Part shown: piece by piece, positions 1-5,392 of the stretch | Numbering within the stretch: the first letter of the stretch is position 1 | Layout: every line of letters begins with the position of its first letter | IMG/VR virus record: IMGVR_UViG_2724679140_000006 | DNA from: a virus | Taxonomy: Duplodnaviria; Heunggongvirae; Uroviricota; Caudoviricetes | DNA: 5,392 nt | Strand: one strand, 5' to 3' | Program-made: the position numbers and the translations under genes | Notes under the pieces: model-generated | Told to the model about the DNA's origin: nothing | What the model saw: the letters and a program-made list of their open reading frames with translations, nothing else | Database searches by the model: none

Positions 1-70
1 TTATCAGTTACAGGAAAACATGACCAGAGTATTCCGAAAAAGAGAATAATCAATAAAATATTGAAAATAC

Positions 71-193
71 ATGGTGCCGGGTGCCTCCCGGTGAATTCTG
101 CAATGACCAGACAGAATCCGCAACTTGCCTATACGATAACGCGACCAAACATCTGTCATTATGCCCCTCCGCTCATGAGGATTCACCATGCAG
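71..193. repeat. Copy A of a structured direct repeat: 25-nt 5' box, divergent hairpin-containing core, 15-nt 3' box
   Basis: The 5' box ATGGTGCCGGGTGCCTCCCGGTGAA (71-95) is identical to 985-1009, and the 3' box GGATTCACCATGCAG (179-193) is identical to 1073-1087. The 5' box contains a GGTGCC direct repeat and a CCGGG/CCCGG hairpin, and the CATGGTG/CACCATG ends are inverted complements. The core is different in sequence from copy B but forms its own hairpin (ATTCTG 95-100 with CAGAAT 112-117). Weaker shared boxes continue to about 257. Strand of any RNA product is unknown. Confidence 0.8.
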
Positions 194-389
194 TACTCTT
201 TTAACAAACTCCCTGCAAGCAGGACAACATTCTGCGTTCTGAGTTGTGTGGAATTTAACACTTCACACCTGTGTGCATTTTCTGCAGGCTGATACCAGCT
301 CCACAATACATCGCAGGCAACAGAAGCCAAATACCCCACCACAGAAAAAACATGCAATTATGATTATTGTTTACTGCAAAGATGTAGAA

Positions 390-818
390 TCACGGTTTAA
401 AATCCAGCACTCCATTGTGAAATACTTTATATACTTCCGGAGACGGCGGCGCTGGTATATCAGCATTCTTTATCGCATTCATCGCTTCACGACATAAATC
501 GAGGTCTCCACTTTCTCTTTTAACCTCCAGTAGAAGGCCATTCGGGGCCATATGCATTCTCAGTGTACACTCTTTTCCTGAATACTTACTCGCATCCCCG
601 AACTGTTTTTCGATGGCGCTCTTGATTTGATGGGCATACAGACGGATATCCTCACTAACATCAGAAGTACGTTCAGATGAACTCACATACTGTGTCTCTG
701 TTGATTTATCGGAGTAATATGATGTACGGTCATAATAATTTGTCGATACAGCATCAGTGCATCCGATAATAATCCCACTAATAATCAACGTAAGAATTGA
801 TGCGCTACGAAAACCCAT
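390..818 (-). CDS. Prophage lipoprotein with a TolA C-terminal (domain III)-like domain, 142 aa
   Basis: ATG at 818 with a GAGG RBS about 5 nt upstream; TGA stop at 390. N-terminus MGFRSASILTLIISGIIIGC has a basic n-region, a hydrophobic h-region and an IIGC lipobox. A Ser/Thr/Tyr-rich linker follows. The C-terminal ~85 aa (YAHQIKSAIEKQFGDASKYSGKECTLRMHMAPNGLLLEVKRESGDLDLCREAMNAIKNADIPAPPSPEVYKVFHNGVLDFKP) matches E. coli TolA domain III as I recall it (motifs QIKSAIE, CTLR, APxGxLL, GDxxLC, IPxPPS, VYxVF, terminal LDFKP). Similarity is from memory, not computed. Confidence 0.75.
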   Translation of the reverse strand: MGFRSASILTLIISGIIIGCTDAVSTNYYDRTSYYSDKSTETQYVSSSERTSDVSEDIRLYAHQIKSAIEKQFGDASKYSGKECTLRMHMAPNGLLLEVKRESGDLDLCREAMNAIKNADIPAPPSPEVYKVFHNGVLDFKP

Positions 819-847
819 TTTTCCTCACATATGTCATATAGTAAAGG

Positions 848-877
848 ATTATATATACCGTTGTTTTGGACGCTCAA
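848..877 (-). promoter_or_regulatory. Putative sigma70 promoter for the lipoprotein gene (TTGAGC, 18-nt spacer, TATAAT)
   Basis: Minus-strand -35 TTGAGC (plus 872-877) and -10 TATAAT (plus 848-853) with an 18-nt spacer. Predicted start near 841, giving a ~20-nt leader to the ATG at 818. Sequence inspection only. Confidence 0.45.
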
Positions 878-935
878 ACAGCGAATCAGATCAAATAAAA
901 CGCACATTTGTTAACATTTACACAAAGTCTGCGTG

Positions 936-956
936 GGATATTCTGAAAGAATATCC
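936..956. promoter_or_regulatory. Perfect 8-bp inverted repeat GGATATTC-TGAAA-GAATATCC, possible operator
   Basis: Exact dyad symmetry seen directly, about 60 bp upstream of the -35 of the lipoprotein promoter. No U-run on either strand, so it is not an intrinsic terminator. Confidence 0.3.
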
Positions 957-984
957 ATAATGTGGAGAGAATCTATTGAAGTGC

Positions 985-1087
985 ATGGTGCCGGGTGCCT
1001 CCCGGTGAACAAAACGTTCGTGATACCTGTCGGCGACAGAAAAGGTTAATGGTATCACCCCACCGCACAGGGGGATTCACCATGCAG
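985..1087. repeat. Copy B of the structured direct repeat (same 5' and 3' boxes as copy A, different core)
   Basis: 5' box at 985-1009 and 3' box at 1073-1087 are identical to copy A. The core forms an 8-bp stem (GTGATACC 1020-1027 with GGTATCAC 1051-1058) enclosing a small hairpin around 1027-1039. Upstream ATTGAA and downstream boxes CAAACTCaCTGC (1100-1111) and GAGTTTGTGGcATTTA (1144-1159) are also shared with copy A. Confidence 0.8.
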
Positions 1088-1406
1088 GAGTTTTCTTAGC
1101 AAACTCACTGCGCGCCCGGCAACTCCCAACCACATAAAATGCGGAGTTTGTGGCATTTATGCATATAACTCGCAGGAATTATCTTAAAAAACTGATGTCG
1201 ATCCGGATTAAAAAGAAGCAGGTCATCATCAGATGACTGGAAAAAAGGAAAACAAAAAATACTCATCATACAGTTTTGATTGCAGGGATGAGCCTGCTAT
1301 GCACAATATGCAGAATATAAGCAAGATAAAAATATGCAGGCATATTATTTCGGATTTTGTTATTAACACAACCTTTTTAATAATCATTTGGCATACAATA
1401 AACCAG

Positions 1407-1786: not shown

Positions 1787-1861
<75 letters not shown>

Positions 1862-1864
1862 ATA

Positions 1865-1940
<76 letters not shown>

Positions 1941-1942
1941 AC

Positions 1943-2019
1943 TGGACCGCCACCGAGGACTCGAACCTCGTACGCTCAACTTAGAAGGTTGATGCTCTTT
2001 CCAGGTGAGCTAGTGACGA
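1943..2019 (-). tRNA. tRNA-Arg (anticodon UCU)
   Basis: Reverse complement is TCGTCACTAGCTCACCTGGAAAGAGCATCAACCTTCTAAGTTGAGCGTACGAGGTTCGAGTCCTCGGTGGCGGTCCA. Anticodon loop CTTCTAA as in argU-type tRNAs, T-loop TTCGAGT, encoded CCA. Acceptor stem has two G-U wobbles including U1-G72. Confidence 0.75.
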
Positions 2020-2020
2020 C

Positions 2021-2096
2021 AGGTGGCCCTTGCTGGATTTGAACCAGCGACCTGGCGATTATGAGTCGCTCGCTCTCACCACTGAGCTAAAGGGCC
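2021..2096 (-). tRNA. tRNA with CAU anticodon, ileX/ileZ-like (probably tRNA-Ile2; tRNA-Met not excluded)
   Basis: Reverse complement is GGCCCTTTAGCTCAGTGGTGAGAGCGAGCGACTCATAATCGCCAGGTCGCTGGTTCAAATCCAGCAAGGGCCACC. Strong resemblance to E. coli ileX as recalled. Anticodon loop CTCATAA. Only CC of the 3' CCA is encoded; the next base is T. Confidence 0.75.
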
Positions 2097-2893: not shown

Positions 2894-3057
2894 AACGATA
2901 ACTCCGTACATTTGGACATTATCGCCACCGTCAGGTGCTAATCATCGTGGTGGCGAACTGTGCGGGGTTAGCACTACCGAGTACGGAAACCGGCGAGCCT
3001 TTCGGCTCCCCCACACAGCCCGCCATAAATCGCGAATGTGACTGTGCAAACGATATG

Positions 3058-3079
3058 AAAAAAAGACGCGGGCGCGTCT
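3058..3079 (-). terminator. Intrinsic terminator about 60 nt downstream of the pR'-like promoter (tR'-like)
   Basis: Minus-strand hairpin AGACGC-GCCC-GCGTCT followed by seven T residues. Confidence 0.6.
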
Positions 3080-3141
3080 CATATCGCTCCGTAAACATCC
3101 GGGGTGCTAATCCCGACGCCAGATTTTGCTGGCGCGTGAGG

Positions 3142-3171
3142 AATATAGCCCCGGATAACAGATTGAGTCAA
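3142..3171 (-). promoter_or_regulatory. pR'-like late promoter overlapping the Q stop codon (TTGACT, 18-nt spacer, TATATT)
   Basis: Minus-strand -35 TTGACT (plus 3166-3171, overlapping the TGA stop of the upstream ORF) and -10 TATATT (plus 3142-3147). Promoter immediately 3' of Q followed by a terminator is the classic lambdoid pR'/tR' layout. Confidence 0.5.
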
Positions 3172-4844: not shown

Positions 4845-4960
4845 CAGAGTCCTTCCGGATAATTCGCACTCCCCTTCAGGGGACCATCCCTCTTATCCCT
4901 GCGCGCTACTTAAGTATTTTTGATTCTATTCCGGCACCGTCCAAAACTTCAAATGCGTTG

Positions 4961-4992
4961 AAAATAAAAACAAAAACCCGCCGAAGCGGGTT
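4961..4992 (-). terminator. Intrinsic terminator of the hok transcript
   Basis: Minus-strand hairpin AACCCGC-TTCG-GCGGGTT followed by TTTTTGTTTTTATTTT. A second hairpin (GGCGAGGG-ATTAC-CCCTCGCC, 5032-5052) in the 3' UTR is consistent with the fold-back element of hok mRNAs. Confidence 0.6.
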
Positions 4993-5059
4993 AAGTGCGG
5001 GTGCGTTGAGGATGCCTGACACATCAGAGGTGGCGAGGGATTACCCCTCGCCTGGTCTC

Positions 5060-5215
5060 TTACTCCTCAGGTTCGTAAACTGTGAAGACAGCGACCTCCG
5101 TCTGGCCGGTTCGGATTCGTACCTCGCAGAGGTCTTTCCTCGTTACCAGTGCCGTCACTATGACGGTTAAACAGATGACGATCAGGGCGATTAACATCGC
5201 CTTTTGCTGCTTCAT
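5060..5215 (-). CDS. hok: Hok/Gef family type I toxin, 51 aa, HokD/RelF-like
   Basis: MKQQKAMLIALIVICLTVIVTALVTRKDLCEVRIRTGQTEVAVFTVYEPEE is near-identical to HokD/RelF as recalled. ATG at 5215 with AGGAG about 9 nt upstream; TAA stop at 5060. The ORF track shows an in-frame 19-codon upstream extension from an ATG at 5272, which may be a mok-like frame. Confidence 0.85.
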   Translation of the reverse strand: MKQQKAMLIALIVICLTVIVTALVTRKDLCEVRIRTGQTEVAVFTVYEPEE

Positions 5216-5280
5216 AGCCTGCTTCTCCTTGCCTTTCGGCACGTAAGAGGCTAACCTACATTTGTGAGACATAGATTGGG

Positions 5281-5338
5281 CCTCAGATTAATGTTAAGCG
5301 TCTTGCAGGACGCGTAATGTTAACTGGGGCTTTTCTCT
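5281..5338 (+). ncRNA. Possible Sok-like antisense RNA 3' end, or a leader structure of hok mRNA
   Basis: Plus-strand compound hairpin: outer CCTCAG/CTGGGG, imperfect arms containing TAATGTTAA twice (5288-5296 and 5315-5323), inner GCGTC-TTGCAG-GACGC (5298-5313), followed by CTTTTCTCT. It is antisense to the region upstream of hok. No convincing promoter found; boundaries and strand are uncertain. Confidence 0.25.
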
Positions 5339-5392
5339 ATCTGCCTTTTGGTGATCATGCCTGAGGCAGATAGCCTCAAGCACCCATTATGA

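Follow-up and report, generated by a model that had tools for sequence, protein, structure and literature searches.

The window analysed here, a 5,392-nt stretch of an Escherichia coli prophage (IMG/VR record IMGVR_UViG_2724679140_000006), contains two direct repeats, copies A and B, in the same orientation and 914 nt apart, with the gene for a lipoprotein between them. The lipoprotein gene is annotated tolA in RefSeq and has its own sigma-70-like promoter. All features lie on the minus strand, which is the sense strand of the prophage late genes:

21–220, minus strand: STnc100 copy A, full Rfam match, with the structured core at 66–193 (RF02076 and our own model R1).
69–76, minus strand: 3′ strand of the closing helix P1 of copy A (RNA CACCAUGU; fold and covariation).
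77–91, minus strand: hairpin H4 of copy A (RNA CCGGG-AGGCA-CCCGG), identical in both copies.
184–191, minus strand: 5′ strand of P1 of copy A (RNA GCAUGGUG), which pairs with 69–76 in the fold and covaries.
198–227, minus strand: weak promoter-like site before copy A (TTGTCC, 18 nt, TAAAAG), placed by positional homology to the PasD1 promoter.
390–818, minus strand: lipoprotein with a TolA C-terminal domain, 142 aa, the cargo between the copies (Pfam PF06519 TolA, 82 bits).
848–877, minus strand: sigma-70-like promoter of the lipoprotein gene (TTGAGC, 18 nt, TATAAT; 10 of 12 matches).
929–1115, minus strand: STnc100 copy B, full Rfam match, with the structured core at 980–1087 (RF02076, R1 and MFE).
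983–990, minus strand: 3′ strand of P1 of copy B (RNA CACCAUGC; fold and covariation).
991–1005, minus strand: hairpin H4 of copy B; a mosaic breakpoint coincides with the inner edge of the conserved box (~1009).
1056–1072, minus strand: hairpin H1 of copy B (RNA CCCCC-UGUGCGG-UGGGG), with pairing kept in family variants.
1078–1085, minus strand: 5′ strand of P1 of copy B (RNA GCAUGGUG), which pairs with 983–990 (fold and covariation).
1093–1122, minus strand: weak promoter-like site before copy B (TTGCCG, 18 nt, TAAGAA), placed by positional homology to the PasD1 promoter.

The repeats share a long box of 26 nt (CATGGTGCCGGGTGCCTCCCGGTGAA; 70–95 and 984–1009) and a short box of 15 nt (GGATTCACCATGCAG; 179–193 and 1073–1087), which carry at their outer ends the reverse-complementary 7-mers CATGGTG and CACCATG. 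The window contains exactly two occurrences of a 20-nt stretch of the long box, compared with none in 200 dinucleotide-preserving shuffles. The cores are unrelated in sequence and length (elements of ~123 nt for copy A and ~103 nt for copy B), and the sequence common to the two copies is confined to the boxes and H1. The first-pass annotation had described direct repeats with conserved ends and divergent cores, inverted-complement box ends and cores that each fold on their own; all of this is borne out, with the true start shifted by one base, and both copies adopt a multi-hairpin fold closed by an end helix. The minus-strand fold of copy B (–45.2 kcal/mol, MFE) has a z-score of –3.46, and that of copy A (–42.9 kcal/mol) one of –1.27, by energy alone no better than shuffles. 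The absence of a conserved reading frame was also correctly noted: minus-strand ORFs of both copies begin with MVNP, then shift frame and diverge.

Both repeats are paralogous units of a known small-RNA family, STnc100 (RF02076, named 'Gammaproteobacterial sRNA STnc100' in Rfam). Copy A scores 105.3 bits against the Rfam model (E 5e-23, model positions 1–206) and copy B 86.4 bits (E 4e-18, full model length), both on the minus strand and above the curated gathering score of 47 bits. Neither copy has an Rfam match on the plus strand, and a scan with E up to 10 found no other RNA family at their coordinates. R1 gives 84.6 bits to copy A at 66–193 and 82.0 bits to copy B at 980–1087. The anatomy agrees with the scores: a core closed by the GCAUGGUG/CACCAUGC helix and the hairpins CCCCC..GGGG (H1) and CCGGGAGGCACCCGG (H4) are present in both copies, and the source has the enterobacterial lambdoid prophage setting of the family. 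The 3′ terminator hairpin and U run of the model are absent from copies A and B, where the model alignment is gapped or mismatched. Over window positions 70–266 copy A is 86% identical to the STnc100 copy of an O157:H7 prophage, which itself scores 175 bits. Among the readings offered by the first-pass annotation, a family of structured RNAs is correct. Membership as such is no new finding: any run of Infernal/Rfam assigns both copies to STnc100.

The family comprises a ~110-nt core with a closing helix and three hairpins, whose helices are kept by compensatory changes across more than 200 related elements. Among 132 distinct members, paired cells make up 86.8% of the total compared with 76.7% in shuffles, and 21 of 26 pairs have changes on both sides. 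The covariation score of 0.289 (0.130 in shuffles) was reached by none of 500 shuffles, and slid partners give 0.05–0.09. In P1 the sixth pair is G-C, A-U or G-U and the seventh U-A or C-G; the O157 homologue of copy A has CAUGAUG/CAUCAUG, a double change. H4 is the most conserved part (99% paired in the 132 members), and the K-12 Qin copy carries a compensatory CCUGG/CCAGG there. Because elements were collected with the exact 20-nt box and the alignment was fitted to our own model, conservation of H4 and inner P1 is partly by construction. H1, the second helix, is 94.5% paired with changes on both sides in three of four pairs, and its variants CUUUC/GAAAG and CCAC/AUGG retain pairing; H3 has 96 distinct complementary arm pairs. 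The H1 loop is conserved as U-N-N-G-C-G-G, and the middle of the core is hypervariable. G-U pairs are numerous on the minus strand, supporting a minus-strand RNA; together with the compensatory changes they argue that selection acts on RNA, not on a DNA site.

A pseudoknot in the family core is probable. In the majority of members, the loop of H3 pairs with the stretch following H1, with a mean of 6.28 bp compared with 4.94 ± 0.10 bp for shuffled loops (reached by none of 300 permutations) and 4.25 bp for a neighbouring segment. Copy A is predicted to form this pseudoknot, and copy B is modelled with a nested helix in its place. The Rfam consensus structure line, as printed by the scan, lacks the pseudoknot.

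Within the phage late region, the locus forms a tandem array in the order B, lipoprotein, A, C. Its third unit lies ~125 nt past the left edge of the window in the source prophage (L001 11758–11965), scores 102.6 bits against RF02076 and, unlike the window copies, carries a linker and a terminator. The proposal that the repeats bracket a lipoprotein cassette holds within the window, with the qualification that the prophage has this third unit, and in E. coli M18, which has four adjacent units, B-type and A-type units adjoin with no lipoprotein gene between them. Leclercia also has four adjacent units. Elsewhere the cargo between paired copies is heterogeneous and often missing, and there is no general cassette rule. 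Copy A occupies a slot after late-region cargo (the TolA-like lipoprotein) and before nanS-p/DUF1737. The same slot is taken in Stx2 phages by EcOnc27/sRNA103 and the STnc100 copy downstream of stx2B, with stx2AB as the cargo.

Relatives of the window copies are transcribed in EHEC EDL933 and Salmonella LT2. EDL933 has 11 transcribed STnc100 copies, one of which was verified on a Northern blot (PMC5331693); the STnc100 copy downstream of stx2B overlaps with EcOnc27, which is bound by Hfq (PMC12711010); and ChIP-exo located RpoD and RpoN at STnc100 promoter regions of Salmonella LT2 (PMC10794520). Among 208 unique elements, a promoter match of at least 9/12 lies directly upstream of 56 (7 in the control), and a terminator-like site follows P1 in 101, at a median distance of 29 nt. 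Copies A and B have no terminator-like hairpin with a T run downstream. The linker and terminator module of complete relatives is absent from both, and homology to those relatives stops where P1 ends. A linker, a terminator and a convergent AgvB-like sRNA are all present in the O157 relative of copy A (a copy other than the stx2-linked one) but missing from copy A itself. The promoter-like site before copy B matches the consensus weakly and ends 7 nt short of the first P1 base; the region upstream of copy A is homologous to that of the O157 copy. Without a terminator and with weak hexamers, the window copies may be decaying or purely co-transcribed.

Related Hfq-dependent prophage sRNAs are PasD1/PasD2 of EPEC E2348/69 (EcOnc13 of EHEC), which share with the window copies the 5′ start (GCAUGGUGAAUCC), H1, a pseudoknot-type core and placement just upstream of nanS-p or a holin gene. 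The PasD1 promoter is TTGACT-18-TAAAAA, and RNA-seq coverage puts the estimated start of the 173-nt RNA at the G of GCAUGG, which is the initial base of P1. PasD1/PasD2 are truncated in H4 and P1 (AGCGGGAGGCGCCAUGC) and score 37.7 and 41.4 bits, below the Rfam cut-off; they have a linker seed (CCUUGUGAG) and a terminator, both of which the window copies lack. The seed of PasD1 lies outside the core, and both it and the RIL-seq chimeras fall in the linker and 3′ part (PMC8550237). A 2026 preprint proposes common ancestry of PasD and STnc100 (10.64898/2026.05.13.724894). Since ORFs separate Q and PasD in E2348/69, the PasD promoter is probably not the Q-adjacent promoter.

We conclude, with a probability of about 0.82, that the repeats are two STnc100 units on the minus strand, part of a tandem sRNA array with a moron between units and joints formed by recombination. 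This reading builds on observed family membership, conserved structure, position and orientation, and homology breakpoints; expression of copies A and B, targets and a role for the structured core are proposed. In complete members, a sigma-70 promoter sets the transcript start at the first base of P1, the core is followed by a ~30-nt single-stranded linker, which holds the seed in PasD, and an intrinsic terminator ends an Hfq-associated sRNA of ~170–200 nt. As the window copies lack a terminator, we infer that each is transcribed as a segment of a longer RNA: copy B would form a 5′ leader that continues into the lipoprotein gene, and copy A would be co-transcribed with the third unit, which has the linker and terminator. 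On induction, all units would also lie in the Q-antiterminated late transcript.

This last step touches on the alternative that survives best, in which the core is mainly a cis-acting element of the Q-dependent late transcript (processing, stabilising, insulating or assisting antitermination) and free sRNAs are secondary. Such a role fits a placement between Q and the lysis cassette that strictly follows the direction of the late genes: a Q antiterminator gene lies upstream on the same strand for 91 elements, on the opposite strand for 6 and downstream for none, while 82 elements have lysis genes downstream in their own direction and none has them on the opposite strand. About half of the elements, including both window copies, lack their own terminator, and one subfamily, with no obvious promoter, sits in lambda-like late leaders. 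K-12 Qin has core-only copies between dicF and dicB, and lambda keeps a shortened remnant downstream of tR′ (L125 ~1050–1110) that is recognisable by eye; this remnant, however, does not match the Rfam STnc100 model. In L080 the core forms the 5′ part of a promoter-core-terminator unit just upstream of the holin gene, an arrangement like that of lambda PR′-6S-tR′. Yet many members form complete, independent genes equipped with a promoter and a terminator, some arrays have no gene downstream, and PasD is an abundant Hfq-dependent trans-acting sRNA (PMC8550237). Nor is any protein partner or Q type specifically linked to the family, which occurs with six Q types. We consider a mainly cis-acting role unlikely, if worth keeping in mind.

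Some members, such as L080, resemble the PR′-tR′ transcripts lambda 6S and StxS, which are constitutive promoter-to-terminator units just upstream of late genes, giving a stable short RNA in lysogens and being read through on Q antitermination (PMC7547250). Homology to lambda 6S was rejected: there is no sequence or model match, and the PR′-S region has no match to the Rfam STnc100 model. Most STnc100 units lie at least 800 nt downstream of Q. An equation of the strong promoters of the family with PR′ is likewise not established, with elements at least 831 nt past the Q end; L080 is compatible with it.

A less probable alternative holds that the repeats are primarily DNA recombination sites, cassette boundaries or mosaic joints through which the lipoprotein moron is excised or swapped. 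Breakpoints do fall at box edges. The homology of copy A to the O157 copy stops at window position 70, the outer edge of the P1 3′ strand; of the E. coli genomes that match, about one in four aligns only over 389–1009 and then continues into a different core (e.g. L122); and copy B and M18 diverge shortly past the box. Of 76 core types, 25 are found next to at least two kinds of downstream flank and 25 next to at least two kinds of upstream flank, and the adjoining B-type and A-type units of M18, without cargo, could be read the same way. Against this stand the compensatory changes and G-U pairs, which mean selection at the RNA level, and the lack of an attC core motif or a linked recombinase. 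Nor is there a box at window 389, where the lipoprotein segment has its other end. A B-core/A-downstream hybrid, the product predicted for deletion between the direct repeats, is absent from 5,426 E. coli genomes. An apparent hybrid with upstream B and core A was traced to the M18 array, in which B and A units are neighbours. Spacer homology was considered as a lipoprotein insertion site and is not claimed, similarity being weak beyond ~10 nt past the box. Ordinary homologous recombination yields breakpoints at conserved islands, and the breakpoints here look like its by-product at a conserved RNA-gene sequence. The suggestion of mosaic joints thus stands as to breakpoints at the box edges (1009 and 70) and cores with many flanks, but not as to a dedicated site. 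Lambdoid boundary sequences are similar as short conserved sequences that join unrelated prophage segments; they differ in that the conserved sequence here is explained by a functional RNA, with joints probably a by-product.

The comparison with integron attC sites rested on imperfect inverted ends, a variable self-pairing centre and an adjoining cassette-like gene. It fails: the ends read CATGGTG and CACCATG, with no R″-L″...L′-R′ organisation and no GTTRRRY/RYYYAAC core site at the boundaries, none of the 41 annotated features in 25 kb around the locus is an IntI integrase or attI/Pc, the elements are oriented transcription units and selection acts on RNA.

The weakest alternatives can be dealt with briefly. 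A MITE (ERIC/Correia-like) or insertion-sequence fragment, suggested by short length, terminal inverted repeats of 7–9 bp and a high copy number within genomes (11 in EDL933), is highly improbable. Flanking direct-repeat lengths in 182 elements equal those of random flank pairing, so that target-site duplications do not exceed chance; copies occur only at syntenic, co-oriented positions in prophages; the 'inverted repeat' covaries as an RNA helix; and neither a transposase nor anything in Rfam or elsewhere besides STnc100 gives a match. Just as implausible is a recent tandem duplication or the remnant of a small protein-coding gene: the copies share orientation, lie 914 nt apart and both have MVNP ORFs, but only the boxes and H1 are common, each copy has its own closer relatives in other prophages, and frame shifts and family indels exclude a conserved frame. 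The first-pass annotation had named both outcomes as ones that would overturn its reading, and neither was found. A tRNA-like element (CACCA in the 3′ strand, T-arm-like H4) was rejected, with ARAGORN finding only four true tRNAs, an H4 loop of 5 nt and a paired CACCA; a small ORF using an SD-like GGGAGG in H4 and the AUG of P1 is not conserved, most members reading CACCACA.

A further and rather doubtful suggestion concerns the core itself. The nearly invariant, pseudoknotted ~110-nt core might do more than passively stabilise the 5′ end of base-pairing sRNAs, and be a specific binding domain for a protein or ligand (a decoy, a scaffold or aptamer-like), deployed as free RNA in lysogens and within the late transcript, with ends that would double as recombination joints for swapping late-region morons such as stx, nanS-p and the TolA-like lipoprotein.

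STnc100 occurs across the Enterobacteriaceae, with seven or more copies in Trabulsiella and Superficieibacter, and ranks among the prophage RNAs that recur most often in pathogenic E. coli; one of the 11 copies in EDL933 lies beside stx2. Our comparison adds anatomy beyond the Rfam line, namely a covarying pseudoknot, a terminator spacing of ~29 nt in half of the elements and arrays, along with core-only copies beside dicF in K-12 and a lambda remnant. The breakpoints found at the conserved boxes point to these RNA genes as sites of late-region cargo exchange between prophages, which bears on the movement of toxin and other moron genes between phages.

Two direct repeats in the window share a long box of 26 identical nt (70-95 and 984-1009) and a short box of 15 identical nt (179-193 and 1073-1087), and the outermost 7 nt of each repeat are reverse complements of one another. 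Comparable box matches arose in 0 of 200 shuffles. Core sequence and core length differ between the copies; in each, the fold places several hairpins inside the end helix, and the copies have no common reading frame. The first-pass annotation had described these features and had listed a family of structured RNAs among its explanations, which the Rfam scan bears out: both copies match the full length of RF02076 (STnc100), exclusively on the minus strand, with scores of 105.3 (copy A) and 86.4 bits (copy B) against a gathering score of 47 bits. Their assignment as RNA modules of the STnc100 family, encoded on the strand of the late genes, is near-certain; the repeats were correctly observed and belong to an already known family. 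Readings of the repeats as attC sites, MITEs, a duplication or coding sequence all fail.

The window is part of an E. coli lambdoid prophage, with 100% identity to NZ_CP054665 (mouse isolate). The minus strand carries all window genes, in the following order of transcription:

5060-5385, minus strand: hokD toxin gene and the region of its sok antisense RNA (Rfam sok, 121 bits)
minus strand: NinB-like DUF1367 gene
minus strand: YbcO/DUF1364
minus strand: Q-like antiterminator (DUF1133)
2946-3148, minus strand: isrK (74 bits) and C4 antisense RNA (75 bits), with C4 a1/b1 target sites (50 bits)
minus strand: ORF6N antirepressor
1787-2096, minus strand: four phage tRNAs (CAU, Arg-UCU, Thr-UGU, Gly-UCC)
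929-1115, minus strand: STnc100 copy B
390-818, minus strand: gene of a lipoprotein with a TolA C-terminal domain (cargo), with its own promoter
21-220, minus strand: STnc100 copy A

Past the left window edge lie a truncated nanS-p (DUF1737), DUF826, holin, lysozyme, spanin and terminase. This gene order places the repeats in the late region, with Q on one side and the lysis cassette on the other. The isrK/C4 group, located from the Q-like gene to the antirepressor, is a P1/P7-type c4-ant immunity module; the source prophage (L001) holds a second isrK and C4 pair at 24630-24831. The CAU tRNA is Met according to ARAGORN and Ile in the RefSeq annotation, and the tRNA cluster is followed by ~650 nt with two terminator-like sites (1435-1416 and 1687-1666) and without a convincing ORF.

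A 20-nt segment of the long box served to gather relatives; it occurs in 120 stretches of a viral-contig collection and in 94 of a one-genome-per-species collection, almost all Enterobacteriaceae; the two combined give 163 distinct elements. Covariation is seen in the outer pairs of P1, the closing helix (CAUGGUG/CACCAUG, UGUGGUG/CACCACA and CAUGAUG/CAUCAUG, for example). A covariance model built from 22 diverse members yields 138 matches in 100 sources. In its alignment, which was fitted to the model with hairpin H4 and inner P1 fixed by the search pattern, 86.8% of cells are paired vs 76.7% after shuffling, both sides vary in 21 of 26 pairs, and the covariation score is 0.289, compared with 0.130 in shuffles (reached by 0 of 500) and 0.05-0.09 with slid partners. 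Independent parsing of hairpin H3 found 96 different complementary arm pairs. Because G-U pairs are frequent and Rfam matches fall on a single strand, we assign the minus strand as the RNA strand.

The H3 loop is complementary to the segment directly after hairpin H1 over a mean of 6.28 bp, vs 4.94 ± 0.10 bp when loops are shuffled (none of 300 permutations comes up to 6.28) and 4.25 bp with the next segment along. We read this complementarity as a putative pseudoknot, which is absent from the RF02076 structure line printed by the Rfam scan. Copy A has the pairing (AAUGAC-AGA with UCU-G-GUCAUU); copy B has in its place a nested helix, GUGAUACC paired to GGUAUCAC, and then a small hairpin. H4 of both copies (77-91 and 991-1005, minus strand) contains a Shine-Dalgarno-like GGGAGG, which in CAUGGUG-type copies lies 11 nt ahead of an AUG in the P1 3' strand. 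Most family members have CACCACA at this strand, so no ORF is conserved there; the arrangement may be related to ribosome footprints reported on some EDL933 copies.

An origin as mosaic-joint boundaries, also proposed initially, is partly right. Across E. coli, homology to window 1-1250 falls into classes that stop either at the inner edge of the long box in copy B (1009) or at the outer edge of P1 in copy A (70). Direct reading showed that a related prophage (L122) has the window sequence from the box downstream, with a different core and upstream region; that in an O157 relative of copy A the match runs from the upstream side to the end of P1, with divergence beyond it; and that the B unit of E. 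coli M18 diverges ~10 nt past the box. Over the family as a whole, at least two kinds of downstream flank accompany 25 of 76 core types, and at least two kinds of upstream flank accompany the same fraction (25/76). The predicted deletion hybrid of copies A and B is absent from 5,426 E. coli genomes, and the other end of the cargo segment (389) lies away from any box. We therefore regard the joints as a side effect of homologous recombination in conserved RNA-gene sequence.

Inside the window the repeats do bracket the lipoprotein cassette, but the locus is an array that extends beyond the edge. In the source prophage, a third STnc100 unit (L001 11758-11965, minus strand, 102.6 bits) lies directly downstream of copy A, ~35-240 nt past the left window edge, and has a linker and an intrinsic terminator, CAGCCCCUCUCCGGAGGGGCUUUUUU; the window thus cuts a three-unit array. 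E. coli M18 (NZ_CP010219; L222 1549-2576) carries four tandem adjacent units, placed from phage tRNAs to a DUF6645/nanS-p gene, of which unit 1 is B-type and unit 2 A-type, ~125 nt apart without a lipoprotein gene between them. The third unit, and the adjacency of the B-type and A-type units in M18, argue that the array existed first and that the lipoprotein moron lies between two of its units. Both window copies surround the gene in only 10 of 5,426 E. coli genomes, and a copy-B-type or other STnc100 unit precedes it in ~800. The cargo aligns closely in ~800 E. coli genomes, and a second TolA-C-like gene adjoins its homologue in related prophages (L122, L124); the lipoprotein may be a decoy for Tol-dependent colicins or phages.

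Across 245 surveyed elements, 91 have a recognisable Q gene (six types) upstream and co-oriented, 6 have it on the opposite strand and 0 downstream; for lysis genes the counts are 82 downstream and co-oriented, 0 on the opposite strand and 7 upstream, with a median distance of 636 nt to the first lysis gene. The L080 unit, with a promoter (TTGACG-18-TAAATT), core, ~155 nt and a strong terminator ahead of a holin gene, resembles lambda PR'-6S-tR' in arrangement; its promoter is a candidate PR'. The lambda late leader itself holds a shortened element remnant downstream of tR' (L125 ~1050-1110; lambda 44849-44909), GUUGUGCUGAAU...CCGGAAGCAGAACCGGAUCACCA; the flanking sequence is almost the same as in one subfamily, and the Rfam STnc100 model does not match the remnant. 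Not all copies follow the late-region rule: the source prophage has a core-only copy in its early region, adjacent to a DicF-like RNA (L001 24430-24562), and a core-only STnc100-like element with compensatory CCUGG/CCAGG in H4 lies between dicF and dicB in the K-12 MG1655 Qin prophage (L224 13454-13584; NC_000913.3 ~1649453-1649583; no annotation in the record). In O157:H7 TW14359 (L123), an AgvB-like anti-sRNA (4881-4940, plus strand, 56.6 bits) is convergent with, and abuts the 3' end of, a copy-A-related STnc100 copy (4942-5150, minus strand); nothing in the window matches AgvB.

According to a 2026 preprint, STnc100 has a common ancestor with the EPEC sRNAs PasD1/PasD2 (10.64898/2026.05.13.724894). 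We located PasD1 in E2348/69 from published coordinates and read its sequence directly. Its estimated 5' end, the G of GCAUGGUGAAUCC, is the first base of the closing helix, downstream of a promoter (TTGACT-18-TAAAAA); approximately the first 100 nt are structured, the predicted seed, CCUUGUGAG, is located in the linker, and the 173-nt RNA ends in a strong terminator. On the Rfam STnc100 model PasD scores 37.7 and 41.4 bits, under threshold. In a set of 208 unique elements with flanks, a terminator-like hairpin with its T run is present in 101; the stem begins at a median distance of 29 nt downstream of P1 (interquartile range 26-41). A promoter match of at least 9/12 that ends a few bases ahead of P1 is present in 56, vs 7 in the control. 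These counts indicate that about half of the members are stand-alone, PasD-like sRNA genes of ~170-200 nt; in some genomes, e.g. Leclercia, complete units form tandem arrays with a period of ~250 nt. Copies A and B, in contrast to PasD, are not stand-alone: no terminator was found downstream of either, and their promoter-like hexamers are weak (TTGTCC-18-TAAAAG and TTGCCG-18-TAAGAA, respectively). Transcription of copy B would continue into the lipoprotein leader, and copy A would be co-transcribed with the third unit, which would supply the terminator.

In published work STnc100 figures as an sRNA that prophages carry in multiple copies, and expression of the family is documented. EDL933 has eleven STnc100 copies, nearly all transcribed, one with a Northern signal (PMC5331693). 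A copy ~75 nt downstream of stx2B was found in outer-membrane vesicles (PMC12370729) and overlaps the Hfq-bound EcOnc27/sRNA103 (PMC12711010). STnc100 promoter regions of Salmonella LT2 serve as examples of RpoD and RpoN binding in ChIP-exo data (PMC10794520). Homology to PasD, EcOnc27 and the EDL933 copies makes it likely that lysogens produce stable, Hfq-associated RNAs from the STnc100 family and that the family also forms part of the Q-dependent late transcript.
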